From a virus (lineage: Duplodnaviria > Caudoviricetes), in the IMG/VR virus record IMGVR_UViG_3300012953_000070, positions 1 to 40,097 of that record: 40,097 nucleotides of DNA, one strand, 5' to 3'. The notes under the pieces were generated by a model. That model was not told where the DNA came from. It did no database searches and worked only from the letters and a program-made list of their open reading frames with translations. Each line of letters opens with the position of its first letter. Position 1 is the first letter of the stretch. Positions 6,570-34,665 of the stretch are shown here, piece after piece. Position numbers and translations under genes: made by a program.

Positions 6570-7334
6570 ATGCCAAGCTTAGGAATAGGTCAAACATTAA
6601 CTAAAAGCTCTTTAGTTACACCAGGAATTATAAGAGATAATCTTGTGTTAAAGCATAATTATACAGATAGTCAAGTCGTACTTGTAAGTGATGGTGCTGC
6701 TTATTTTGATGGTACTGATGATGAGATAGATTGCAAAGCCTCAACTAATTTTATAACAGGAAATAATGTTACAATGGCTTGTTGGTTTAAAGTGCTAGAT
6801 GGAGATGATACTACATTAATGCATAATCAAAAAGGTGATGGGAGTTCTAATTTAACTTTATCTGTTAATTATAAAGCTAGTGGCTCTGCAGATGGCTATT
6901 TAACAGGTATAGTATGGGGAGGAAGTGCTCATACATATTTAGAGTATGATGGAAATGTAGACACATCTAATAAATGGCATCACGCTGCAATTACTACTAC
7001 AGCTTCAGAACAAAAATTATATTTAGATGGAGTTCTTGTTGATACTAATTCTGAAACATTTTCAAATAGTGCTTCTTCAGATGAAATGTACCTTGGTGCA
7101 TTTAATGGTGGGACTAATTTTTTAAAAGGATACATGTGCAATGCAGGAGTATGGTCAGCAACATTAACTCAAGCACAAATCAAATCTATTATGTGGAAAA
7201 ACTATGCAGGTTTATCAAATAGTGAAAAAACAAATTTAGTATCATGGTGGAATTTAGATTCAAGTTATATTGTTGGTGATACAACTCATAAAACAGCTGA
7301 TTCACATGGTTCAAACAATGGGACACTAGCATAA
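6570..7334 (+). CDS. LamG/concanavalin A-like lectin domain virion protein
   Basis: YFDGTDDEI, TMACWFK, KWHHAAIT, KLYLDG, WSATLTQAQI and LVSWWNLD are LamG-like jellyroll hallmarks. Confidence 0.85.
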   Translation: MPSLGIGQTLTKSSLVTPGIIRDNLVLKHNYTDSQVVLVSDGAAYFDGTDDEIDCKASTNFITGNNVTMACWFKVLDGDDTTLMHNQKGDGSSNLTLSVNYKASGSADGYLTGIVWGGSAHTYLEYDGNVDTSNKWHHAAITTTASEQKLYLDGVLVDTNSETFSNSASSDEMYLGAFNGGTNFLKGYMCNAGVWSATLTQAQIKSIMWKNYAGLSNSEKTNLVSWWNLDSSYIVGDTTHKTADSHGSNNGTLA

Positions 7335-10300
7335 TGGCTGCTACTATACAAACAATTCAAAAACCAACAAGAGCTAGAGCATTAGATACCTCTAACAATA
7401 ATAATCATGGGCAAATATATTCAGGTAGAGCATTAGAGTTTGATGGAGTTAGTGATTATTTTCAGCATAATGGCGGAACTAATATATCAGGAGTTAATAG
7501 CTTTGCTGATGGAGAAGCGTGGACTTTTGCTACTTGGATATATTTTAGAGATACAAAATTTACTTTATTTGTTGGAGATGACAATAGTACTCATACCAAT
7601 ATAGGTTTACATAACAGTGATTATATTATGTTTAGAGCAGATAGTGGAAATTATTATAAATTCGATTCAACTCAAACTAATGCATTACCTGGGTCAGAAC
7701 CTTTGCAAGAAAATACTTGGTATCGTTTAGTTATAACTGCTAAAGATAATATTTTAACTTGTTATTTAAATGGAGTTCAACATGGTTCGACTATTACTAC
7801 ATCTACAAATAATACAAGTAATGGTACAGCTTTTCCAGGAAGTGCATCAGATTTTACTGGTTGGGGTATGCCATATGCTACTCCTAGAGCTCATGGTTTA
7901 GATGGAATGATGTCTGATGGACAGGTATGGGATTCTGCATGGACAGCAGATGATGCATCATTTGACTATCTTAATCCTGAACAATTAGCTTTAAATAGAG
8001 GTGGTACATTATTAACAAACTCTAATCTTAAGATATGGTATCCAATGAATGATGGACATAGAGGACAGCAATCATATATACTTGATGCTTCAAATACAGG
8101 GTTGGGTGATGAGATGGTTACTAATGGTGATTTTTCTTCAGGTGATTTAACAGGTTGGACAGAAGGTTCTACTAGTAATCCTGATTGGCAATTTGATACT
8201 GTTGAATATGACAATGGGAGAATGCATGTAGTTTCTAATGGAGTAAATGAAGGTGCAGGTTATCAAACTGTAAACAATTTAGTAAATACTCCTTTTGTTG
8301 AAGGGGTTACTTATAGACTTGCTTATGATATAACTGTAAATAGTGGTTCTATGGCTGTACTTGCTATGAATGGAGCTGTTTCAAATCAAGTAGGATATAA
8401 TGTAGTTCATACTTCATCTGAAAATGTTGTTGCTTATTTTACTGCCAATAGTAGTGCAGGAAGTACTCCAGACAAACATTGCATAGAAGTATATAGAAGT
8501 ATAACTACAGCTGGAGATATTTATATTGATAATGTATCTCTCAAACCTGTAAACGACAAAAATCATGCAACAACTGTATTTTATGGTGATGAGTTGATAA
8601 CTGCTCAAACAAATAGAGATTTTAGTGGGAGTGGAAATTGGGCTGCATTTGACCCAGATTCATCTTCAATTGCTACTGTTGTTAGTTTAGATAGTGCAAG
8701 AATGAAAATAGTTACTACGACTGAAGCTTCTGATGAAAGAGAGGGATGTGAACTTGATATGTCATACATGACAGCTCCAGTAGCAGGAAGAACTTATAGA
8801 ATTAGTGCAGATATGCAAGCAACATCAGCTGGATTTACTTTGACAGTAGGTATGGGAGGAGCAAGTACAACGCAAGCAATAACTACTAGCGATGCAACAT
8901 ACAATATGGATATTACTGTTGCTAATTCAGTTGGAACTTTAAGATTTTATACAACAGAAAATACAGCAAGAACATGGCATATGGATAATATATCAGTTAA
9001 AGAAGTAGGCACAGCAACAGGTTGGACAGACGCAGACCAACAACTTGATATACCACAAACAGCATTACAATCTTATAACCAATTGGCTTGGTTTGATGGA
9101 TATGCTACAGATACAGCTGCTGAATTAGATAGCACTTTTTATTTTGAAGTTGGACAAACTATAAATATGTGGGTATTTCCAAATTCTATTACTATATATG
9201 ATTCTATATTTGGAGCAAGAGAAACTGAAAATTATGTGAGGTATCAAAAAAATTCTGGTTCCTTTGTATCAACTAATGAACTTGTTCAATTTGAACCAGA
9301 GAATAATACCGCTTATAGTATCACTGCGACTATTTCAGGTATTTTAGAAGTAGGAAAATGGCAAATGTATACATTTATATGGAATACAGATAGAACTATA
9401 GATTTCTATGTTAATGGACTAAAAATAGGAGAATCTTCAGCTACTGCAGACACTACTGATGGTAAAAGATTAAAAGTAGGTCACTTTGGTGCTGGATATG
9501 GAACATCTTCTTTACCATTTGAAGGAGCAATGACTGAAATATCTTACTGGAATGCTGGATTTAATTTATCTGAAGTAACACAATTATATAATAATGGTAA
9601 AGCTTTAGATGCAACCTTGCATACTAAATATTCTGAAGGCGCAGCTAATTTAACAGGTTATTGGAGAAATAATGGTTTATCTGAATGGAAAGATTTAAAA
9701 GGCAGTAATGATGCAAATGTAGATTCAACAGAAACAATGTTAATCACAGCAGGAGTAGATGGTTTAAGAGATTCTCAAGGATTTATAATGAATCGTCAAA
9801 GAGCTACTAATAGTTTGAATTTATGCGTGTTAGGAAGTGTAGATACTGGTAATTATGTCTCTATCCCAGTAAAAGAATATGATATAGATGGAAGTCCTAC
9901 TAGTTTCTCTTTTTGGTTTAAATATGAAGGAGTTGGTAATGGTGCTGGTCAAAGCATTTTAGGGAGTTCTACAACAAGTTCTGCAAGTATGTTACAAGTT
10001 AATCCTACTAATAAAATTACAATAGAAGGAGATACTAATAATAAGTATGCACGAAATGATGATAGTTATACAGCTTTAACTTTAGGAGAATGGTACCATT
10101 TTGCAATAACTTGCGCAGGTGATGGTTCTGTTATATTATATAAAAATGGAGCAAGTTTAGGAACTACTGAATATGGAACTGGAAGTGATATTGATGTAAA
10201 TATGACAATAGACCAAATAGGATTATCTTCTACTGGTTCTTATGAAGTAGATAGCCAAATAGATGATTTAGCTATATATGAAGGTAAAGCTTTAACAGCA

Positions 10301-10348
10301 GCAGAAGTAAAAAGAAATTATAACGCAGGTAAAAGGAGTCACAAATAA
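7334..10348 (+). CDS. Multi-domain LamG/CBM-like adhesion or fibre protein
   Basis: Three LamG-like repeats (WTFATWI..WYRLVIT; INMWV..KWQMYTF; SFSFWFK..WYHFAIT) plus two CBM4/9-like modules (NGDFSSG...IDNVSLK; RDFSG...MDNISVKEV). TAATG-coupled to the previous gene. Confidence 0.85.
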   Translation: MAATIQTIQKPTRARALDTSNNNNHGQIYSGRALEFDGVSDYFQHNGGTNISGVNSFADGEAWTFATWIYFRDTKFTLFVGDDNSTHTNIGLHNSDYIMFRADSGNYYKFDSTQTNALPGSEPLQENTWYRLVITAKDNILTCYLNGVQHGSTITTSTNNTSNGTAFPGSASDFTGWGMPYATPRAHGLDGMMSDGQVWDSAWTADDASFDYLNPEQLALNRGGTLLTNSNLKIWYPMNDGHRGQQSYILDASNTGLGDEMVTNGDFSSGDLTGWTEGSTSNPDWQFDTVEYDNGRMHVVSNGVNEGAGYQTVNNLVNTPFVEGVTYRLAYDITVNSGSMAVLAMNGAVSNQVGYNVVHTSSENVVAYFTANSSAGSTPDKHCIEVYRSITTAGDIYIDNVSLKPVNDKNHATTVFYGDELITAQTNRDFSGSGNWAAFDPDSSSIATVVSLDSARMKIVTTTEASDEREGCELDMSYMTAPVAGRTYRISADMQATSAGFTLTVGMGGASTTQAITTSDATYNMDITVANSVGTLRFYTTENTARTWHMDNISVKEVGTATGWTDADQQLDIPQTALQSYNQLAWFDGYATDTAAELDSTFYFEVGQTINMWVFPNSITIYDSIFGARETENYVRYQKNSGSFVSTNELVQFEPENNTAYSITATISGILEVGKWQMYTFIWNTDRTIDFYVNGLKIGESSATADTTDGKRLKVGHFGAGYGTSSLPFEGAMTEISYWNAGFNLSEVTQLYNNGKALDATLHTKYSEGAANLTGYWRNNGLSEWKDLKGSNDANVDSTETMLITAGVDGLRDSQGFIMNRQRATNSLNLCVLGSVDTGNYVSIPVKEYDIDGSPTSFSFWFKYEGVGNGAGQSILGSSTTSSASMLQVNPTNKITIEGDTNNKYARNDDSYTALTLGEWYHFAITCAGDGSVILYKNGASLGTTEYGTGSDIDVNMTIDQIGLSSTGSYEVDSQIDDLAIYEGKALTAAEVKRNYNAGKRSHK

Positions 10349-12094: not shown

Positions 12095-12119
12095 TTTTTT
12101 GAAATGAAAAGAGGTGATT

Positions 12120-12896
12120 ATGGCAAAATTGCAAGGCAATATTGTTGATAGAGCAATAGTAACTCCTGATAAGCATTTTCCTATACATGATAAGAAAGCA
12201 ATTAAAATAGTATGCAAAGCTATTGAAATTGTAAAACCTACAATGTATATAGATTTAGGAGATACTGGGGAATGGGAGCATTTTAGTAACCATTATTGGA
12301 AAGGTAGAAATGCTAAACCAATGGAAGATTTAATACCATTGTTAGATAAAGATGTAAAAGCGGTTAATAAAGGTATGGATATAATAGATAAGTCCTTAGA
12401 TAAGATTAAATGTAAAAAAAGACATTTTATCCAAGGTAATCACGAAGTATGGCTTGATAATTTTGTTGTTAAATATCCTTATTTAGACCAATACAAAACA
12501 TACAATGCTTTAAAATTAAAAGAAAGAGGATATGAATATCATCCTTATTTTAGAAAGAAGTTGCTTAAAATTGGTAAATTAAATTTTACACACGGGCATA
12601 GAACGGGTATGCATCATGCAAAGGCACATTTAATGATGTACGGAGAATCAGTTATGTATGGACATACACATGATTTGCAAAGACATACACATAGTTCATT
12701 AGGAGGTACAATCAGTGCTTGGAGTTTAGGGTGTTTAAAAGATATTGATATAGATGAAGATTGGTTAAAAGGTAACCTAACAAATTGGAATCATGCATTT
12801 GCAATAATAGATTTTTTTAAAAATGGAGATTACAAAGTAGAAGTAGTAGAAATTATAAATGGTAAAACCTCATTATGGGGTGAAGTATTAACATAG
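12120..12896 (+). CDS. Calcineurin-like metallophosphoesterase
   Basis: DxH (PDKH), LGD, GNHE, THG and GHTH motifs. GAGGTG SD favours the ATG at 12120. Confidence 0.9.
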   Translation: MAKLQGNIVDRAIVTPDKHFPIHDKKAIKIVCKAIEIVKPTMYIDLGDTGEWEHFSNHYWKGRNAKPMEDLIPLLDKDVKAVNKGMDIIDKSLDKIKCKKRHFIQGNHEVWLDNFVVKYPYLDQYKTYNALKLKERGYEYHPYFRKKLLKIGKLNFTHGHRTGMHHAKAHLMMYGESVMYGHTHDLQRHTHSSLGGTISAWSLGCLKDIDIDEDWLKGNLTNWNHAFAIIDFFKNGDYKVEVVEIINGKTSLWGEVLT

Positions 12897-24456: not shown

Positions 24457-25437
24457 ATGTCAGTTTTTAATCCATATCAAGATTCTCAACCTCAAGTGCA
24501 GCAATATGGAGATATGAAGGGAATTTTAAATAAAATCAAAGAAAGTATACAGACAGATAAAAGATTTAAAGGTCAACATATTAAAGCTATTAATGAAGAT
24601 ATTGAAGCAATACTTAATGATATGAGGAAAAAGAAAAAGAAAAAAGGTGTTATAGGCGGTCTTTTAAGTTTAGGCTCTATGTTTATACCTGGATTAGGAA
24701 CACTTGGAAAAAGTTTAATTTCTGGGCTTATTTCTGGTGTTACCTCTAAAGATACACTTAAAATGTTAAAAGATAAAAAAGGAAAAATTCAAGATTTAAT
24801 GAGTGGAACATTTATGGATAAAACATTAAGAGATGTTGAATCAGGAATTGAGTCTGATATGGAATCTTACGACCCTGTTAGAGCTGCAATTGAGTCAGCG
24901 GCACTTACTGCAATAATGTCTAGTGCTGGAGGAAAAGGAGAAAAAGCAGCAGAAGGAACAAAAGAAATTCCAGAAATAGATTTCGGAGAATCTTTAGAAA
25001 AATCTTATGGTGGTGGAGGTGGTGGTGTAGGATTTTCTGCGCCTAAAGATTCACTTAAACCAACTATGGTTACAGGCACAGACGGTTTTAGCTCTTTTGA
25101 TATGGCTATCCCTAAAAACTTACAATCACCTGACTTTATATCAAATTTATCAAAAAGTGAAATTCCAACTTCTAATGTAAGTGTCGCATCTAAAACACCA
25201 TTTTTTCAAAAAATAGGATTTACTGACCCTAATGCGCCAACAGCAGCAGATACATGGCAAAAAGCAATGTCTCCATTTAAACAAGATAATTGGAAACAAG
25301 GAATGAGTAAAGCTGGAGCAAATTGGACTCCATTTTTATCATCTTATGTAAGCGGCGCTATGCCATCGTTTGGTATGAATCCTGTAAGCGATAATCTTGC
25401 AATGCTAATGCAATTAATGAAGAAAGGAAATAAATAA
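24457..25437 (+). CDS. Putative internal virion (ejection) protein
   Basis: Poly-Lys followed by a Gly-rich hydrophobic helix (GVIGGLLSLGSMFIPGLG). Position after the tail genes. Confidence 0.55.
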   Translation: MSVFNPYQDSQPQVQQYGDMKGILNKIKESIQTDKRFKGQHIKAINEDIEAILNDMRKKKKKKGVIGGLLSLGSMFIPGLGTLGKSLISGLISGVTSKDTLKMLKDKKGKIQDLMSGTFMDKTLRDVESGIESDMESYDPVRAAIESAALTAIMSSAGGKGEKAAEGTKEIPEIDFGESLEKSYGGGGGGVGFSAPKDSLKPTMVTGTDGFSSFDMAIPKNLQSPDFISNLSKSEIPTSNVSVASKTPFFQKIGFTDPNAPTAADTWQKAMSPFKQDNWKQGMSKAGANWTPFLSSYVSGAMPSFGMNPVSDNLAMLMQLMKKGNK

Positions 25438-26015
25438 TGACATATCAAGAATTAATAGCTCAATTAGGGCAATCAAGCGGAAGTGGAAATTTGTATGATG
25501 AGTTAGATAGCTATGGAGGTACTTATCCTAATTTTTGGGAAAATAATGAAGATACACAAGGAGCTTATGCTGCCAATATGTTTAATTTATTAGGAGGTTC
25601 TTCAGAAAGCGATGGATATTCTCCTGGAGACCAAGAATTTGGAACTAATCCTGGCGGAATGCTTCCTCCAAGCGGAATAGATTCTTGGGCAGATATGTTT
25701 CAAATGTTAAATCCTGTTACAGGAAAACAATTACTAGGAGCTAAATATAATGCAATGAGACCACAAATAGCAAAAGGGATGAGTTCTTTACAAACAGAAT
25801 TATTAAATAACTTATCTAAAGTTAGGACAGGTGGATTTGAATCTTCTGGTTTTGCTGATAAACAAAGAGCACAAGCAAGGGATATTTATGGCAAAAAAGC
25901 TTCAGATATATTGGTATCTGAGGGAACAAAAAGACAAGATTATATGTCAGGTTTAATTGACCAAGTAATGGCAGATAGAGATTTAATGTCATCTTGGATT
26001 GATTACGAAGGATAA
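25437..26015 (+). CDS. Putative internal virion protein
   Basis: 192 aa, G/Q/S-rich, TAATG-coupled. Confidence 0.5.
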   Translation: MTYQELIAQLGQSSGSGNLYDELDSYGGTYPNFWENNEDTQGAYAANMFNLLGGSSESDGYSPGDQEFGTNPGGMLPPSGIDSWADMFQMLNPVTGKQLLGAKYNAMRPQIAKGMSSLQTELLNNLSKVRTGGFESSGFADKQRAQARDIYGKKASDILVSEGTKRQDYMSGLIDQVMADRDLMSSWIDYEG

Positions 26016-26034
26016 ATTTAAATAAGGAATTATT

Positions 26035-27849
26035 ATGGCAAATGATGCTGGTATAGGCGCAATTAGTAGTATATTACAATTAGTAAATGCTCAAAATCAA
26101 CAAACTCAAGCACAAGATACTAGGCTTCAATCAGCTGTATTTTCTGATTTTGAAAAAGATATAGATATAACTTTTGATAATTCAAGAATTGATACAGTTG
26201 TTTCAAGGATGGAAAACTATTACAATCAAAATTTTAATAATATGTCACCGACTATGATTGAAACATATGAGCATTTATTAGAAAAATCTAAATTTCAAAA
26301 AGAAGATAATAGTAAATTTAATGTTTTGTATTCTCAAATAGATGGTCAAACACAAAATATGATGAATCTTTTAAATTCTTACAATGAGGCTGATGAATCA
26401 TTAAAACCTAATATTGCAAAAAAAATGGAATCAAATATTGTTGAGTTTGTTAAATCAAAAAACTCTATATTTAGAAAATTTGGCTCAAGGTTAACAAAAC
26501 CTGAATATGCTCCTGAGCTTACACAATTATCTTCTCTTGATGATATATTTAGATTTGGTATAAAATCTGCAACAGATGATAATTATTTTTCACCTGAAGA
26601 ATACAATGTGTTTTCTAATGCTGTATTAGAAGGTGATATGAGCTTTGTTGATGATTACGTTACTAAGGAAACTAAATACAAACAAGGTGTAGCAAGTACA
26701 TTTTTAAATAGAGGTTTGAAAAAAATTGAAGATATAAATACACTTGCAAAACTTCCAAATCTTATTAAGCAAGCTGTTAATGTAAGTCAAAATCAAACAG
26801 ATACATGGGAAGATATTAAAAATCAAATTATTTATTCTTACGAATCAGGAGGAACAAAAACAGATGTAACTTGGAATGATTTACTTGCAAGCCCTAAAAT
26901 ACAATCTTTAGCTTTAAATGATGAAGAACAAATAGCAGCATTGTCTGAATCTCTTAATAAAGACAATTTTCAATATAATAAAATAACAGGTAATAATATA
27001 CAAGATTTTGCCACTATTGATTGGGATATGCCTAATGTAGCTAATGTTGAACCTCCTGTTGGTACAATTACAGGTATAAATCTTGGAAATCAAAATAACA
27101 CTATATTAGATGGCACAATAAATCAAAATGTTGTAGAAACTCCAACAATATCTCTTGGTGATAATGAAGATATATATGGAACAACTGAAGCAAGTGAAGA
27201 AGATTTAATGCCAAAAGCATCAAAAGAGGCAACAGAAGAAGATAAGATTAAATTTGAATATAATAATTATAGGAATAATATTGAACAACAAGGTGGAAAA
27301 GTTGATTTAAATTATGATGAATTTAAAGAAGTTTATTTAAAATCAGGTCAAGCTAAAGAAGAAGAAACACCAAAAATTAAAAAAACACCTGATGAATATG
27401 CTGGTTATGGCCTCGAAATGGGAGAAGAAGTTACAAAATCTCAAGAAAAAGCTTATATTAATAAGCATAATCTTCAATCGTCAGTGATTAAAAATTTAAT
27501 AAATGAAGATGGTTCAAGGCTTTCATTTGAGCAATTATCTAATATGAAACCAGGTGAAATAGAGTCTAATTTTAGAAAAGTAATAAATTCAAAGATGTAT
27601 CATACATTTAAAGGCACTGGAGCTACTAAAGGTTGGATGAATTCAACATTAAATACAATGATTTTAAATATATCTAATTATAAGAAAGGTAAAAACAAAG
27701 CTACTTCTACTGAAAGTCATATAATGAAAATTTACAATCGGCTTATGAATAATTTTATGCAAAATGTTCAAAGTTTAACAAGAGTAGGGAAAACAATTAA
27801 TACTAGAGGCGAATTTTTTTCTAATTCAAAAAAAGCAATTAAAAAATAA
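26035..27849 (+). CDS. Putative internal virion protein
   Basis: 604 aa, helical N-half, acidic low-complexity middle, basic C-terminus. Confidence 0.5.
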   Translation: MANDAGIGAISSILQLVNAQNQQTQAQDTRLQSAVFSDFEKDIDITFDNSRIDTVVSRMENYYNQNFNNMSPTMIETYEHLLEKSKFQKEDNSKFNVLYSQIDGQTQNMMNLLNSYNEADESLKPNIAKKMESNIVEFVKSKNSIFRKFGSRLTKPEYAPELTQLSSLDDIFRFGIKSATDDNYFSPEEYNVFSNAVLEGDMSFVDDYVTKETKYKQGVASTFLNRGLKKIEDINTLAKLPNLIKQAVNVSQNQTDTWEDIKNQIIYSYESGGTKTDVTWNDLLASPKIQSLALNDEEQIAALSESLNKDNFQYNKITGNNIQDFATIDWDMPNVANVEPPVGTITGINLGNQNNTILDGTINQNVVETPTISLGDNEDIYGTTEASEEDLMPKASKEATEEDKIKFEYNNYRNNIEQQGGKVDLNYDEFKEVYLKSGQAKEEETPKIKKTPDEYAGYGLEMGEEVTKSQEKAYINKHNLQSSVIKNLINEDGSRLSFEQLSNMKPGEIESNFRKVINSKMYHTFKGTGATKGWMNSTLNTMILNISNYKKGKNKATSTESHIMKIYNRLMNNFMQNVQSLTRVGKTINTRGEFFSNSKKAIKK

Positions 27850-30800
27850 ATGGCTACAATTCAAGATTACTTAGCTAAAAAAAGGCAAGAACAACCATAT
27901 TATCAACGCTATAGTGATGTTACGCTGTATAATATATTAAAAGGTTCTGATAAATCACTTCCAAATTGGCAAGCACTCGATAACATTGCAACCCAAGCAG
28001 AGCAATCAAAAAAATTCTACGAAAAAACGCATAAACCAAGTTTTGTAAATTCCCTATATGATTGGACAGATTATGGAATCGATGACATGGATTACAATTG
28101 GGTAAAAAGAGCCTATAATGAGTCTATTACAGGCTTATCTTATCAACTAGTAAATGGTAATCAAAGATTTGCTGTTGATGATAAATGGGAACCAGGAGTC
28201 CTTGAAGATATTGGTTCTGCTGTGCTTGGATTTATGATGCCTCTTGATTTAGCATCAATGTGGGTAGGCGGATGGGCAGGTAAAGCAGGATTAGCAGGAA
28301 TATCATCAACTAAATCAGTTCAAAACACAGCTGTTAAAAAGTTAATGGAAAAAGGATTTTCAAAAGAATTAGCTGAAGGCACAGTTAAAAATGCAGCAAA
28401 CGCAATATCAAGAGATAAAGTTAGTGGAGCTTTAGCAAAAGGTGGTCTTGCAGCAAAAGTTGCTGGAAAATCCAAAGTTGGTCAACTTGCTCACCCTATA
28501 TTAAGTGGAGGTGTTATACAAGGAGCAACACTTGCAACATTTGAGGGAGCAAGAGGTGGTCTTCAAGCCTCTATTAATGGTGAAGATATTTGGAGTGGAA
28601 TTGGACATGGAGTAGCTCATGGTGGTCTTATGGGTGGTTTAGCTGGAATGGTTGGAGCTTCTCTTAATATTGCTAATTCATCATTATATGCAAAATCATT
28701 AGAAAGAACTCTGACTACAAGTGAAAAAGTTGCAAAAGCTTCAACAGGAGCAGTTGGTCAAGTTGTTGCAGAGTCTACAGCATTTTCAGCTCCTGATGCG
28801 GTTAAAGTAATAACTGATGATACTTTTACATCCAAAGATTTTATTAGAAATTTTGCAGTTAATGCAGGTATGATGGGAATCCTTAAAGCTAAGAAAAAAG
28901 TATTAGAAAAATCTTTTAAAACAGTTAATGAATATGTAGAAGAATATAATGCCCAAGAAGGTGCTACATATGAAAAAATGCAAGGGGCTGGAAAAGAAGT
29001 TCTTAATAATATGAGAGAAGGAGCAAGTGAATCGAGTTCTCTTAAAAATATTAAAGCAATGGAAAAAGTTGGAGATAAATACCTCGCTGAAGCATTAAAA
29101 GGTAAAACGATTGAAATTAAAGATAAAGATGGTAATATTAAAGAAGTTGAATTTACTGTCGAAATGTACAGAGATTTAGTTAAGCGGCAAGATGGACTTT
29201 TAAAAGATATTCAATTACTTGAAAAAGGAGAGCTTGATATTGGTAAAATATCAGCTGATAAATATATTGATTATATAAGATTGTTGCATGAAGTTAAAAG
29301 TGGTTTAGAAAATAAAATTAAACGTCATAAAAACGATGTTGATTTAAAGAAAGGTAAAATTGACGAACTTACAAAACTTTTAGATGTATTTGAGCAAGAT
29401 ATTTTTGAGCCATTAAGAAATTTCAAAAGAGGTCAAAAACCAAAACCAATGCCATCATCAACAAAGAAGTTTTATGAAAATAAACTTATAGATGCTGTTT
29501 CTCAATTATCAAAAGCTAAAAACAAGATTCAAATTAAACAATTGATAGAAGGCAATGAATCTGCTATAACAATTGAAAAAGGGAAAATTACAAATATAGA
29601 TAAAGATGCAATCAATCATAGCATATTAAAAGAAAATATAGATGTATATGAAAAATCAAGACCAAAAGATAAAATTATTAGTGATGTTAAAGGAGATAGA
29701 AGAAATCTTGATGATACATCTATATCGGTAGAAGATAAATTAAATTATAGAATATCGGATAAAAAAGGAGAAACAGATACAAGAATATCATCTAAAGATA
29801 GAATAAGAGAATTAGAGCAGAAATTATCTGAATTTGGAAAAGATGAAATATCAACAGAGAAAGACGCAATAGCAAGAGAGCTTATGCTATTAAAAGAAGG
29901 TCAAGCTGCTCAATCTGAAAATCCTTTCACAGGAGAAAAAGGAAGGAAATACGAGCTTAATAAACCTATATTTGCATATTTTGCAGAAAAATTAAACACA
30001 GAATTAAAAGGATTAGGCAAGAATCCTCTCCAAGATATTCCTGCTAAAAAAAGATTTAAAGATATTGTAAAATTTTCAAAATGGCTCGCAGATAAACATA
30101 ATAAAAGTCTTTATGAATTAACAGACAAAGAAATTGCAAATTATTTTCAAAGTGGGGTTGGTAAAAAAAGCCATAAATCCTTTTTATCTAAACTAATAAA
30201 AGATTTAGATAACAAATTAGCAATTACTAAAAGAGGAGCTATTACATACAAAGAACCAGTTCAATTAGAGGCTTTAGTCCCATCTGTCGTTGGAACAGCT
30301 CAACCAAACCCAAGGAGAGGATTCAGAACTTCATTTCAAAAAGGAATAGAAAAAGTATGGAAAATTGGAGAAAATTTTGTCGAATACATTGTTCCTAAAA
30401 CTCAAAAAAAAGTTAAAAAATATATAACTCCAGAAGTAAGCAGAAAGCTAAATAAATTACATAAAAACACAGATGGAGAAGCTGGTCATAATCAATTTAT
30501 GTTTAGAGATGTTTTAAATCATGCAATAACATCAGAAAGATTAAGACCTATTGTACAGTGGGTTTTTGGAGCAAAAGAAATACCAAAAAAAGGATTTGGG
30601 GAACAAAGAGCATTTAGATATTCTTTCATGCAATGGGCTGTTGGAAAATATGGAATAGGAAGTGAAGCATCACAGGTACTTAAACTTGTTCTTAAAGATA
30701 AGCCACCAACAGAATCTGACCTTAGAGCCATATATGGAGAAAAACAATACACTTATGTATCTGATTCAAAAAGATGGGTTAAAGAATATCTTTCTGATAT

Positions 30801-33800
30801 TAAAAATGGTGGGTATACAAAAGATGGGAAATTTATTAAATTTAAAAGCGATAAAAATAAAGCTGGCTATACCCCACAAGAACTAAAAAAAGGCTTAGAT
30901 AAAATAGAAGGTAGAGGCGATGTTGTTAAAATACCTGTTGAATTTAATAAAAAAGGAAAACCTACAAAATATGAAAAGGTATCCAAAGAAACATTAGAAG
31001 CTATGTTTGGATATATGATTCAAACAGCTCCAAGAATAAATGAAATAGTACCAACTGAATCTTTATTAAGCAAAACTATAAAAGAAGCTGGTGGTAATCT
31101 TCAAAAAGCACTTAAAAATGCTGAAAAAATAATAAAAGCTCAAGAAACAACTGATATTGTTAAATGGGCAAATAATACCTACAAAGAATTATCAATTGAG
31201 TTTAGAAAAAGTTTAGGTAAAGTTGAAGGAGATTATGTTCTTGGAAGAATATCTGGACACTTAATTGAAATAGCTCAAGGAAAAGCAAGAGTTGATACTA
31301 TTCCTCATGAGGTATCTCACTATGTTGTTGATGCATTAAAATCATCAGGAGACAAAGCAAGCAAAGCATTAGTAAGAAAAGGAATAAAGTTATTTGGAGG
31401 AGAAGAAAATCTTGTTGATGCTCTTGGTAAATATACTTCAAAAAGAGTTTTAGATAAAACAACAACAGGAAAAATGAAATCTTGGGTAACAAATGTTGTT
31501 AATTACTTTAGACAAAAACTAGGAATATCAAATAGAAATGATGTAGATAGAGTTAAAAGTGAGATTGTATCTTTGCTTGGAGAGAAAGTATATAAAGGTA
31601 AAATACCAAGTAATTATATGCCTACAGCTCAATCAATTGCATATAAATATCAAGTAGGGAAAAAAGCAAAACCTGCATTAAAGAAAGCTCACGATGCTAC
31701 ACATGCAACAATAAGAGAATTAATGAATAAAGGTGTTTCTAAAAAGAATATATTAGATATTATAAAAGATGAAACTGGCATTGATGGTTTTCCTAATATA
31801 AAGAAAAACAATGCAAATACACTTACTGTAAGTCAATATGAAGCATTAAATACAAAATTAGCAGCTGTCATTTTTGGTAGAGGAGAAGGTAAACCTCCAA
31901 AACAATCAAAAAATGAATCAAAAATAGCTAATATTGAAATGCAATATAAAAACATAACACCTGAAACAAGAGAAAACTTTTTTAATAATATATATAATAC
32001 ATCATTTAAAAATGCATCAAAAAATCAAGTCAATGCTTACAGAGCGTATTTAATGCAAGGAGAAAAAGCTAATGTAATAAATACAAGTGCAAGTGAAATG
32101 GAAAATTCCTATAAAGGTGAATCACCAGGAATGAATTCTTGGGCAAGACCATTTATGACTGCTAGGGATGTTATTTTAAAATGGGGTGGAAAATGGGGTA
32201 AAAGATTATCTCAAGACCTTGATATTCATGATTATGTAAGAACTGTTTATTATGGTGAATTTACAAACTACATTAATAGTATTTCTAAGATTGTTGATAG
32301 AAAAACACGAAACAAATATATGCATCTTATGGATAAAGAGATGGCGAAAAATGCTATAAAACAATTAACTGAGCTAAGTAAAAAAGATAAAAAGTATGCT
32401 AAAGAACTTGAAGTTGTTAAAGATATTGCTAATAAATTTGATGTAAAAGTTTCTGAAGGTGGCTTTAAAGAAGCAAGAGATATATGGGAAAAGATGTCTA
32501 AGGGAGCTTGGAATTCTTTATCAGCAGAAATAGCTAAAAATACAAATGCAATGGAAATGCATCAAATAATGAAAGATTTAAATGCAACATATGTAAACAA
32601 CTATTTCACAAGAAGAGTTAGAGGTGAGGTTCTTCGTAATATTGATTCTAAACATAGCTCTATTCAAAAACTAGCAAATGAAATAAGAAAAAACTTATCT
32701 AAAGAAGACCTTAAAAAGATAAAAGAAAAATCAAAAAGTCATGATTCGGTAGAAGATTATATAGCAAATCAAATCTTTGATATGTACCAGTATGGGCCAG
32801 TAAAGGTCAATCCGTTCTTTCTTAAAAAAAGAGGAACATTATTACCAGAGTATATTGAAATTACAAAAAATGGTTCTAAGAAATTAGTTAAATCATATGA
32901 ATCAAGTGTTGATGCTACAATGAATCACTATGCTTTGGGCATGGCAAGGTTTCTTGCAACTGTAAGATTATTTCCAGAGTGGACAAATTTAGGTGGTAAA
33001 TTCTCTCTTGAAAGTGGAAAGAAAAGAGATATTATTGAGATGATGAAACAAGATAAAAATGTTGGTGGATATGCAATCAAGGCTCTTGAAAGACAGCTTG
33101 GATTAGACCAAACATCTGCGGATAGACTTAATGACCCTTATATAAGATTAGCTGGAAAAGTAACTAATGTAAACGCTGTGATGGGATTATCATCTCCAAC
33201 ATCTGGTATAAAAAACTTTTTAATACAAGTTCCAAGAAGTGCATATCTTTATGGAACAAGAAATACTGTAAGAGCATTAGCAAAAACAATGTCTATATAC
33301 AATGACCCTGTTAAATATGCAGAGTCAATAAAACAAGGAACTACTGGATATGGCTCAAAGCAAGTATTTGAGGAAGCAAGAGTTGGAAAACAAATAAGAT
33401 GGATATTTAAAAATGTTAACCTTATGGAAAAATCTGAAAATTTTAATAGAATAATGTTAGCAGAAGCAGGTAAGATGCATTTTAGTCAATTACTTGCAAA
33501 GGCTCGTGGTAATAAAATATCTTTCCATCCAAATGGAAGAAAAAATGAAATTAATAGATACTTAAAAGAGGTTTATAGATTAACTGAAAAAGATATTGAT
33601 TTTGCCGTTAATACAAAAGATGTATATGGAACTAAGAAATATGCAGATATTTTAAATTGGGTAGGATTTCAATCTCATAAACGTGGAGCTGGGGCAACAG
33701 GAACAGCTGACCTTCCTCTTTGGATGAGTAATAAATATGGACAACCACTTACACTATTTCAAAGAATTGCAATGTCAGTAACTATTGATACACACAAGAA

Positions 33801-34665
33801 TGTTGTTAAGCCTATGTATAAAAGTGGAAACTTTGCTCCTTTAATTAAAGCAACAATAGGTCATGGAGTAGCTGGTGCTGCATTATATACAATGTATGAA
33901 ACTCTATTTAACCAACAACCGCCAAAAGAAGAAAGTGGTTTTATTGATAAAGCTGTTTCATATATATGGAGAGGTGAAGCTCTTGGCATGTTTGGAGAAT
34001 TAATAAGTCCTTATGATAGAGGCTTATCAGCACCAATAATGGAACCAGTTGTTGTTAGAAATGGAAAACTTGCATGGGATAATGCAAGAAGAGCAATGAA
34101 AGGCACTAAATCTTGGAATGAAGCAGTTAAAGATTTTACCACAAAAGCAATAGTATTGGCAGGTCAAGGAGAAAGGGTATTTACAAAAATTAACCATCCT
34201 TATGTTTCTAAATATAAAAAACTTAAAACTCTTGAAAGAACTTGGAGAGATGAAAACAATTTATCAAAAGGAACTTCTACTGGAGAAGCAACAAAAAAAC
34301 AAATTTATTATTGGAACTTAAAGAAAGCTATATTGCTTGGAAAAACTGATGAAGAAATTGCATCAGCATATTATAATGCTTTTAATTACCTCGTTCATGA
34401 AAAAGAACATCAAGGAGAAACATCATTACTACAAAGAGTTAAAGATGCAAAATCAAGTTTAAACAGAGTTGCCTCTTTAATGAATCCAATTGGAGTATCT
34501 GATAAAAAGAATGCAAGAAATAGATTTTTAAAATCATTATCAAAAGAAAATTACAATATGGCTATTTGGCTTGAAAAAGAATATAAGAAAAGAATGTCAA
34601 AACTTAATTACGTACAAAGACAACTGAAGTATAAAGAAAAATACTCACTATACCCAAATTACTAA
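27850..34665 (+). CDS. Giant ejection / polyvalent protein with tyrosine-recombinase-like and HExxH zincin-like domains
   Basis: 2271 aa, last gene of the structural arm. Gly/Ala-rich hydrophobic N-terminal region, recombinase-like motifs at about aa 707-1068, HEVSH at aa 1153-1157, long helical C-terminal region. Confidence 0.75.
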   Translation: MATIQDYLAKKRQEQPYYQRYSDVTLYNILKGSDKSLPNWQALDNIATQAEQSKKFYEKTHKPSFVNSLYDWTDYGIDDMDYNWVKRAYNESITGLSYQLVNGNQRFAVDDKWEPGVLEDIGSAVLGFMMPLDLASMWVGGWAGKAGLAGISSTKSVQNTAVKKLMEKGFSKELAEGTVKNAANAISRDKVSGALAKGGLAAKVAGKSKVGQLAHPILSGGVIQGATLATFEGARGGLQASINGEDIWSGIGHGVAHGGLMGGLAGMVGASLNIANSSLYAKSLERTLTTSEKVAKASTGAVGQVVAESTAFSAPDAVKVITDDTFTSKDFIRNFAVNAGMMGILKAKKKVLEKSFKTVNEYVEEYNAQEGATYEKMQGAGKEVLNNMREGASESSSLKNIKAMEKVGDKYLAEALKGKTIEIKDKDGNIKEVEFTVEMYRDLVKRQDGLLKDIQLLEKGELDIGKISADKYIDYIRLLHEVKSGLENKIKRHKNDVDLKKGKIDELTKLLDVFEQDIFEPLRNFKRGQKPKPMPSSTKKFYENKLIDAVSQLSKAKNKIQIKQLIEGNESAITIEKGKITNIDKDAINHSILKENIDVYEKSRPKDKIISDVKGDRRNLDDTSISVEDKLNYRISDKKGETDTRISSKDRIRELEQKLSEFGKDEISTEKDAIARELMLLKEGQAAQSENPFTGEKGRKYELNKPIFAYFAEKLNTELKGLGKNPLQDIPAKKRFKDIVKFSKWLADKHNKSLYELTDKEIANYFQSGVGKKSHKSFLSKLIKDLDNKLAITKRGAITYKEPVQLEALVPSVVGTAQPNPRRGFRTSFQKGIEKVWKIGENFVEYIVPKTQKKVKKYITPEVSRKLNKLHKNTDGEAGHNQFMFRDVLNHAITSERLRPIVQWVFGAKEIPKKGFGEQRAFRYSFMQWAVGKYGIGSEASQVLKLVLKDKPPTESDLRAIYGEKQYTYVSDSKRWVKEYLSDIKNGGYTKDGKFIKFKSDKNKAGYTPQELKKGLDKIEGRGDVVKIPVEFNKKGKPTKYEKVSKETLEAMFGYMIQTAPRINEIVPTESLLSKTIKEAGGNLQKALKNAEKIIKAQETTDIVKWANNTYKELSIEFRKSLGKVEGDYVLGRISGHLIEIAQGKARVDTIPHEVSHYVVDALKSSGDKASKALVRKGIKLFGGEENLVDALGKYTSKRVLDKTTTGKMKSWVTNVVNYFRQKLGISNRNDVDRVKSEIVSLLGEKVYKGKIPSNYMPTAQSIAYKYQVGKKAKPALKKAHDATHATIRELMNKGVSKKNILDIIKDETGIDGFPNIKKNNANTLTVSQYEALNTKLAAVIFGRGEGKPPKQSKNESKIANIEMQYKNITPETRENFFNNIYNTSFKNASKNQVNAYRAYLMQGEKANVINTSASEMENSYKGESPGMNSWARPFMTARDVILKWGGKWGKRLSQDLDIHDYVRTVYYGEFTNYINSISKIVDRKTRNKYMHLMDKEMAKNAIKQLTELSKKDKKYAKELEVVKDIANKFDVKVSEGGFKEARDIWEKMSKGAWNSLSAEIAKNTNAMEMHQIMKDLNATYVNNYFTRRVRGEVLRNIDSKHSSIQKLANEIRKNLSKEDLKKIKEKSKSHDSVEDYIANQIFDMYQYGPVKVNPFFLKKRGTLLPEYIEITKNGSKKLVKSYESSVDATMNHYALGMARFLATVRLFPEWTNLGGKFSLESGKKRDIIEMMKQDKNVGGYAIKALERQLGLDQTSADRLNDPYIRLAGKVTNVNAVMGLSSPTSGIKNFLIQVPRSAYLYGTRNTVRALAKTMSIYNDPVKYAESIKQGTTGYGSKQVFEEARVGKQIRWIFKNVNLMEKSENFNRIMLAEAGKMHFSQLLAKARGNKISFHPNGRKNEINRYLKEVYRLTEKDIDFAVNTKDVYGTKKYADILNWVGFQSHKRGAGATGTADLPLWMSNKYGQPLTLFQRIAMSVTIDTHKNVVKPMYKSGNFAPLIKATIGHGVAGAALYTMYETLFNQQPPKEESGFIDKAVSYIWRGEALGMFGELISPYDRGLSAPIMEPVVVRNGKLAWDNARRAMKGTKSWNEAVKDFTTKAIVLAGQGERVFTKINHPYVSKYKKLKTLERTWRDENNLSKGTSTGEATKKQIYYWNLKKAILLGKTDEEIASAYYNAFNYLVHEKEHQGETSLLQRVKDAKSSLNRVASLMNPIGVSDKKNARNRFLKSLSKENYNMAIWLEKEYKKRMSKLNYVQRQLKYKEKYSLYPNY

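Follow-up and report, generated by a model that had tools for sequence, protein, structure and literature searches.

Tyrosine recombinases (YRs) have a catalytic core of Arg, Asp/Glu, Lys, His, Arg, His/Trp, and Tyr (PMC10516654), and in the canonical order box I precedes the Lys, box II, and the Tyr. In phages, the MPTase domain is the hub of polyvalent effector proteins and is also carried by the N4 virion RNA polymerase (vRNAP) (PMC5512222), and SU10 gp20-24 are ejection proteins borne in the virion (PMC9509320). We analyzed a 40,097-base stretch of viral DNA (IMG/VR record IMGVR_UViG_3300012953_000070; hereafter the window), a partial genome in which one giant open reading frame (ORF) encodes a protein of 2271 amino acids (aa). 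It was confirmed that aa 703-1066 of this giant protein form a YR module whose patch I/box I piece stands after the catalytic Tyr. The analysis bears the module out as a genuine variant of the tyrosine-recombinase superfamily, new both in itself and in its setting.

Motif order and predicted fold of the module

An earlier note on this DNA had read K850, QFMF (aa 882-885), R920/R923, D950, Y962, Y1007, and R1062 as recombinase motifs, and all of them were found in the ORF at those positions (Table 1). Conservation was examined in an alignment of 45 rows, comprising the window and 44 relatives or fragments, most of them 19-46% identical and including three fragments and some near-duplicates. K850, R923, Y962, R1062, and E1065 never vary where the residue is present, although overall identity drops to 19-30%, so the motifs go beyond chance and the note's reading agrees with the homologues. 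The order K, R, Y, and then box I is kept in every row covering those sites, with box I lying 74-129 residues downstream of the Tyr instead of in its canonical place. Because the invariant columns match the list in PMC10516654, they represent the YR core, arranged as K, R, Y, R, E; five of the seven core residues are identical in the window allele and six of seven in the 30 alleles with His at position 950. That His brings back the usual G-H motif, and the Tyr of the aligned relatives lies 9-14 residues downstream of the His/Asp position. Three residues ahead of R923, 43/45 rows have Arg; the R-x-x-E segment reads TGPRxNE in many relatives, and G824 is invariant in the 43 rows with a residue there. 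Among the permuted alleles with textbook motifs (patch II, DLRK, LGH, and Tyr at +9), P0068 is listed earliest.

AlphaFold2 models were generated for aa 690-1100 (predicted local distance difference test score (pLDDT) 83.4, predicted template modeling score (pTM) 0.70) and for aa 822-1075 (pLDDT 86.6, pTM 0.86). The shorter segment folds as one domain, and its pTM implies that the part after the Tyr belongs to that same predicted domain. Using VIA-align, a sequential aligner, aa 703-806 matched the XerD core-binding domain (1a0p; Z 9.3, root-mean-square deviation (rmsd) 2.8, 91 aligned), and named integrases or recombinases made up 17 of the 22 top rows; KRFKDIVKFSKWL lies in this domain at aa 734-746, where the earlier note had placed it. 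The catalytic part gave YR or type IB topoisomerase (TopIB) folds in all 13 top rows, and MrpR and SroF were among the VIA-align fold matches. The catalytic matches span only model residues 1-180, ending shortly after the Tyr, and model residue 1 or 2 (aa 822-823) aligns to XerA 140, Cre 178, XerH 218, and lambda Int 217. In Cre, XerH, and lambda Int, Arg I is R173, R213, and R212, respectively (PMC10516654), and in XerA, counted from the profile alignment with plain numbering assumed, it is R135. The structural match therefore begins at Arg I + 5 in all four proteins, leaving exactly patch I and box I unmatched. According to the models, the permutation break point is between box I and patch II, and G824-F-R826 is patch II. 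R1062 and E1065 very probably occupy the box I position.

Circular permutation of the catalytic domain, as the earlier note had suggested, is supported by conservation, by fold matches, and, as described below, by complementary spacing and mutually exclusive N- and C-terminal box I pieces. The note's other suggestion, a degenerate tandem duplication with GFR826 as a relic Arg I, finds no support as the present state, and R826 as a relic Arg I was rejected, because it is kept in only 18/43 rows and aa 823 onward aligns after box I, that is, as patch II. hhalign did pair G824-x-R826 with the box I of sister alleles in normal order, but this pairing is outweighed by conservation and structural register. 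Duplication may have been the evolutionary route to the permutation. A weight matrix built from the relocated piece placed the true box I of the sisters among the five best of ~390 sequence windows in 14/27 and among the best 29 in all 27, whereas five control anchors reached the top 5 in 0-4/27.

Table 1: Features of the recombinase module, the giant gene, and its upstream neighbors (window coordinates).
Feature	Position	Strand	Basis
YR core-binding (SAM-like) domain, aa 703-806	29956..30267	+	VIA-align to XerD 1a0p; profile match to sister alleles in normal order
G824-F-R826 (patch II), where the permuted catalytic domain now begins (from models)	30319..30327	+	Conservation and structural register
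K850, beta-hairpin lysine	30397..30399	+	43/43 invariant where residue present; hairpin strands in AlphaFold2 model
Patch III-like QFMF, aa 882-885	30493..30504	+	Aligned to "LF" of normal-order sisters
Box II-like R920-x-x-R923, Arg replacing His II	30607..30618	+	R923 45/45
D950 at His/Trp III position	30697..30699	+	His 30/45, Asp 14/45, Arg 1/45
Y962, predicted nucleophile	30733..30735	+	45/45 invariant
Relocated patch I-like helix, aa 1007-1019	30868..30906	+	Helix in both models; Y1007 40/45, G1015 43/45
Relocated box I helix with R1062-x-x-E1065 (very probable)	30985..31047	+	R and E 45/45
Zincin-like peptidase domain, HEVSH aa 1153-1157	31147..31539	+	Motif; boundaries approximate
Giant 2271-aa protein, likely ejection/polyvalent protein	27850..34665	+	ORF; closes structural arm
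Three genes (326, 192, 604 aa), likely further ejection proteins	24457..27849	+	Directly before giant gene

Sister alleles and exchange of the recombinase slot

The C-terminal part of the giant protein, used as query, retrieved 63 long relatives, and aa 690-1100 gave 6 and 12 matches; one of these 12, P0013, was dropped as an unrelated repeat protein. A set of 72 giant proteins was assembled from the 63, three from the aa 690-1100 search, five from loci, and the window's own. The slot holds the permuted module in 47 of them (three truncated, with only the module end), a normal-order YR in 19, and neither in six. All 47 permuted alleles have the C-terminal box I piece, which is absent from the 19 normal-order and the six empty alleles. 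From the core-binding anchor to patch II there are 53-82 residues in permuted versus 113-166 in normal-order alleles; the permuted alleles are short of about 65 residues before patch II, and a piece of that size sits after the Tyr. The profile of the normal-order sisters matches XerA at E 5.6e-9. The permuted profile matches the sister profile at E 1e-10 overall, and its core-binding part (E 7e-6) and Lys-to-Tyr catalytic part (E 4e-7) do so separately. Pfam recognized Phage_integrase in 2/20 and Phage_int_SAM_1 in 3/20 normal-order alleles, and the normal-order sisters keep both Arg in 27/27 and, by pattern, a Tyr after the GH-like site in 26/27.

The same slot is filled by normal-order YRs of several very different types (L009:11618-12955, L011:9895-11214, and P0052-P0074). 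An assembly artefact was rejected as the source of the normal-order allele, which recurs on a second contig (75% identity) and in many proteins. Identity in the pairs P0008/L009 and P0051/P0055 is mostly 14-24% within aa ~550-950 and mostly 70-95% elsewhere. L004:5583-12617 and P0009 have nearly identical C-terminal parts and different permuted alleles, indicating that swaps also occur among permuted alleles. Shorter giants of 1548-1896 aa (P0024, P0036, P0061, P0066, P0067, P0070, L033, L034, and L043) are YR-free, and in P0061, P0067, and P0070 a different small beta-rich domain occupies the slot. In P0056, L016, and L072, extra inserts of ~80-250 aa separate the YR from the peptidase domain, possibly a second variable slot.

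A FastTree phylogeny built on the YR core (141 columns) groups all 45 permuted sequences in a single clade (0.93) that is nested within the normal-order alleles. When the tree is built on the giant protein's C-terminal part, the permuted, normal, and empty alleles are intermixed. The simplest reading of these sequences is one permutation origin followed by repeated cassette exchange: the permutation would have arisen once from a normal-order allele of the same slot and spread via recombination in the conserved flanks. In the single pair compared, the window and L001, the ratio of nonsynonymous to synonymous substitution rates (dN/dS) was 0.31-0.38 in the slot and 0.12-0.18 in the flanks. Matches to the box I motif came from 25 metagenome loci and 11 viral loci, many of which overlap, and all 36 lie in long frames behind other YR parts. 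Peptide-pattern scans of GTDB species genomes, which have limited sensitivity, detected neither a giant-protein relative nor the box I motif, and no stand-alone or prophage copy came to light in either set of searches. Among 50,697 phage records no cultured relative was found except one match at 6% coverage, and a search for forms longer than 4238 aa returned none.

Proposed function and rival readings

A peptidase domain follows directly after the slot (Pfam SprT-like, E 0.0098). Its HEVSH, with an upstream His and a downstream Asp, fits the phage-type MPTase motif in PMC5512222, and the giant protein shows the combination that marks polyvalent proteins, an MPTase HExxH hub and disparate variable domains within one large protein. 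The HExxH motif is lost or decayed in P0024, P0036, P0061, P0066, P0067, and P0070, all lacking a YR, and this joint loss suggests that the peptidase and the YR cargo are linked. In P0002, P0003, and L002 the motif reads HEVVE and the peptidase is likely inactive, with the YR residues intact. By analogy with SU10 gp20-24, and from its gene position and the MPTase link, the giant protein is probably a virion ejection protein.

YRs are capable of site-independent DNA relaxation. The invariance of both Arg, the Lys, the Glu, and the Tyr argues for phosphotyrosine chemistry, and the conserved residues make it probable that the family is catalytically active, somewhat less so for the Asp950 allele. 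We propose that the patch I/box I piece would fold back and complete one active site, that the giant protein would be packaged and the YR module injected as part of it, perhaps to be released by the adjacent HExxH peptidase, and that the module would nick and reseal the entering phage DNA with loose sequence preference. Entering DNA is preferred over a host target because an ejection protein sits where the genome enters. Because very different alleles interchange in the slot with the rest of the gene unchanged, the enzyme is unlikely to have a strict cognate site elsewhere in the phage, unless such sites are exchanged independently. Given the rest, the chances are roughly balanced that the enzyme works on the phage's own DNA as it enters, serving as a swivel or helping to join ends and not as a strictly site-specific recombinase. 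An even chance is also what we would give to the broader claim of a natural, active, circularly permuted YR that is loaded into the virion in an ejection protein and acts before phage gene expression, the exchangeable "recombinase slot" being used at entry by a whole uncultured phage family. The whole reading, in which a packaged and injected permuted YR nicks and reseals entering phage DNA with loose sequence preference, falls a little short of that and is put forward tentatively.

Several observations weigh against this proposal. As the earlier note had reported, both His positions are substituted in the window allele (Arg920 for His II and Asp950 at His/Trp III), and MrpR keeps Tyr and Lys yet is inactive (PMC10516654). 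The recombinase fold expected by the note was recovered as YR/TopIB matches by VIA-align but not by Foldseek, which gave no match at E <= 0.001 for either model; the best catalytic VIA-align match (Z 5.3, rmsd 4.5) is below that program's caution line of 8. The integrase SAM domain 3nrw was the top Foldseek row in one search (E 0.93), and among the re-examined Foldseek matches TopIB alone stood, at Z 3.1. The Pfam integrase profile did not match the window's domain, for which Pfam, PHROG, and PDB sequence searches returned nothing significant; a cluster with 17% Phage_integrase in the ESM Atlas is a lead only. Aligned by hhalign to the full normal-order profile, the relocated piece scored E 0.087 and 0.011 in the wrong place, and it fell in register only on a 15-member subset chosen afterwards (E 0.0028, the best of 23 controls reaching 0.005), making direct sequence homology of this piece to the sisters' box I the weak link of the case. 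No family match places the giant protein in the virion. The module is evidently not essential, since 6/72 relatives do without it, and rapid allele turnover fits a host-directed effector better than a housekeeping swivel.

Such an effector is the main rival to the nick-and-reseal reading, although we consider it unlikely: the same injected, active, permuted enzyme would cleave, trap, or recombine a specific host or competitor site, and swaps would change the target. Many deeply divergent alleles are exchanged among close phages and lost in several lineages, the slot evolves faster than its flanks, the module adjoins an MPTase-type domain, the hub of polyvalent effectors (PMC5512222), and the intact core-binding domain suggests site recognition. 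However, no host or target was identified, literature searches gave no precedent, and the slot dN/dS is still well below 1. The Xer/Cre-like two-domain build would also suit a site-specific recombinase that circularizes a terminally redundant genome, as Cre does for P1, or integrates it before expression. It would be the only YR there, as no other Phage_integrase was found in two complete relatives by Pfam, whose model misses even the sister L009 and so may overlook a divergent second integrase. Such a role is nonetheless improbable, for the GTDB pattern scans, of limited sensitivity, gave no giant-protein or box I relative; lox-like palindromes (1, 0, and 8 sites versus 0-8 in shuffles, the window being a partial genome) were not in excess; and target-site scans yielded nothing above chance. 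In addition, Sak and the Cas4-like exonuclease encoded by the two complete relatives could circularize the genome instead, and slot-only swaps would uncouple enzyme from site.

About as little credit is due to a catalytically dead YR-fold clamp or repressor that, like SPbeta MrpR, holds or shields incoming DNA. The double His substitution in the window allele, the presence of MrpR and SroF among the fold matches, and the use by MrpR of K and Y for DNA binding without activity (PMC10516654) agree with it, but MrpR no longer has Arg I and retains three of the seven core residues (PMC10516654), whereas both Arg, the Glu, the Lys, and the Tyr are invariant here and the normal-order sisters retain both Arg and, with a single exception by pattern, the Tyr. 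Least probable of all is that the R-x-x-E segment is an unrelated helix, arising by convergence or serving another role, and the domain a truncated YR with no true permutation. It is true that aa 1000-1075 show weak direct profile similarity to the box I of normal-order alleles; against this stand the invariant R-x-x-E with its frequent TGPRxNE form, the weight matrix that outperforms its controls (14/27 versus 0-4/27), the strict complementarity of N- and C-terminal box I, and the single-domain model of aa 822-1075.

Gene arm and comparison with described systems

The + strand of the window carries terminase, P22-like portal, and SU10-like capsid and adaptor genes, and the - strand carries replication genes. 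Pfam and PHROG searches of the giant ORF gave no significant match; in the fetched related loci its gene has the same place, ahead of the opposite-strand replication genes. From gene order, the 326-, 192-, and 604-aa genes likely encode further ejection proteins: they lie downstream of the tail genes, have no PHROG match, and correspond to three similar-sized genes in related loci. The structural arm also contains a metallophosphoesterase gene (phrog_221, 12114-12896) and, after the capsid gene, two laminin-G/ConA-like proteins (6570-10348), possibly head decoration. A complete relative encodes an Ocr-like anti-restriction match (L046:7026-7424; phrog_2568, E 5e-9). L047:2810-2842 and L047:6770-6799 (G003) comprise an AT-rich palindrome adjoining the gene for the small terminase and an 11-8-11 inverted repeat richer in GC, a count not above shuffles.

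If true, this would make the module, within the reach of the searches, the first YR catalytic domain known to be circularly permuted in nature, and any YR in a virion-arm protein is a finding in its own right. In the literature searched, which mostly excludes subscription papers, neither a circularly permuted YR nor a YR inside a virion protein was found, and term look-up in the available text of PMC8954989 and PMC7824862 gave the same result. Because of its permuted order the domain escapes Pfam and Foldseek, so other such enzymes have probably been missed. Normal-order parent alleles survive in the same slot, which opens the rearrangement to side-by-side study, and the new termini in the YR fold bear on split or fused recombinase tools. 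A DNA breaking-rejoining enzyme would be added to the cargo that phages may inject, and what becomes of a linear phage genome during the initial minutes, ahead of gene expression, could then be tested.

XerC, XerD, XerA, and Cre share with the module the core-binding and catalytic domains and the conserved R/E/K/R/Y, and they include its best fold matches. Unlike them, it has patch I and box I after the Tyr, Arg for His II, and Asp or His at III, and lies inside a 2271-aa structural-arm protein. A basic residue three before Arg II is a TopIB-like trait. Type IB topoisomerases and telomere resolvases have the catalytic fold in common with the module (TopIB rows), which differs from them in its Xer-like core-binding domain and permuted order. 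Phage YR-fold proteins are likewise used outside integration in SPbeta MrpR (YopR) and phi3T SroF; in contrast to the module, MrpR is an inactive stand-alone repressor in normal order without Arg I (PMC10516654). The polyvalent proteins of Iyer et al. 2017 (PMC5512222) are likewise large virion-arm proteins in which an MPTase-like HExxH domain adjoins a variable enzyme domain; the main text of that paper contains no occurrence of recombinase, integrase, or permut, and its supplements could list the domain under an LPD name. As with N4 vRNAP, T7 gp16, and SU10 gp20-24, the giant gene is the largest and ends a podovirus-like structural arm, and the window's capsid and adaptor match SU10 families. 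The giant protein differs from these ejection proteins in having no sequence match to them and in carrying a DNA breaking-rejoining fold.

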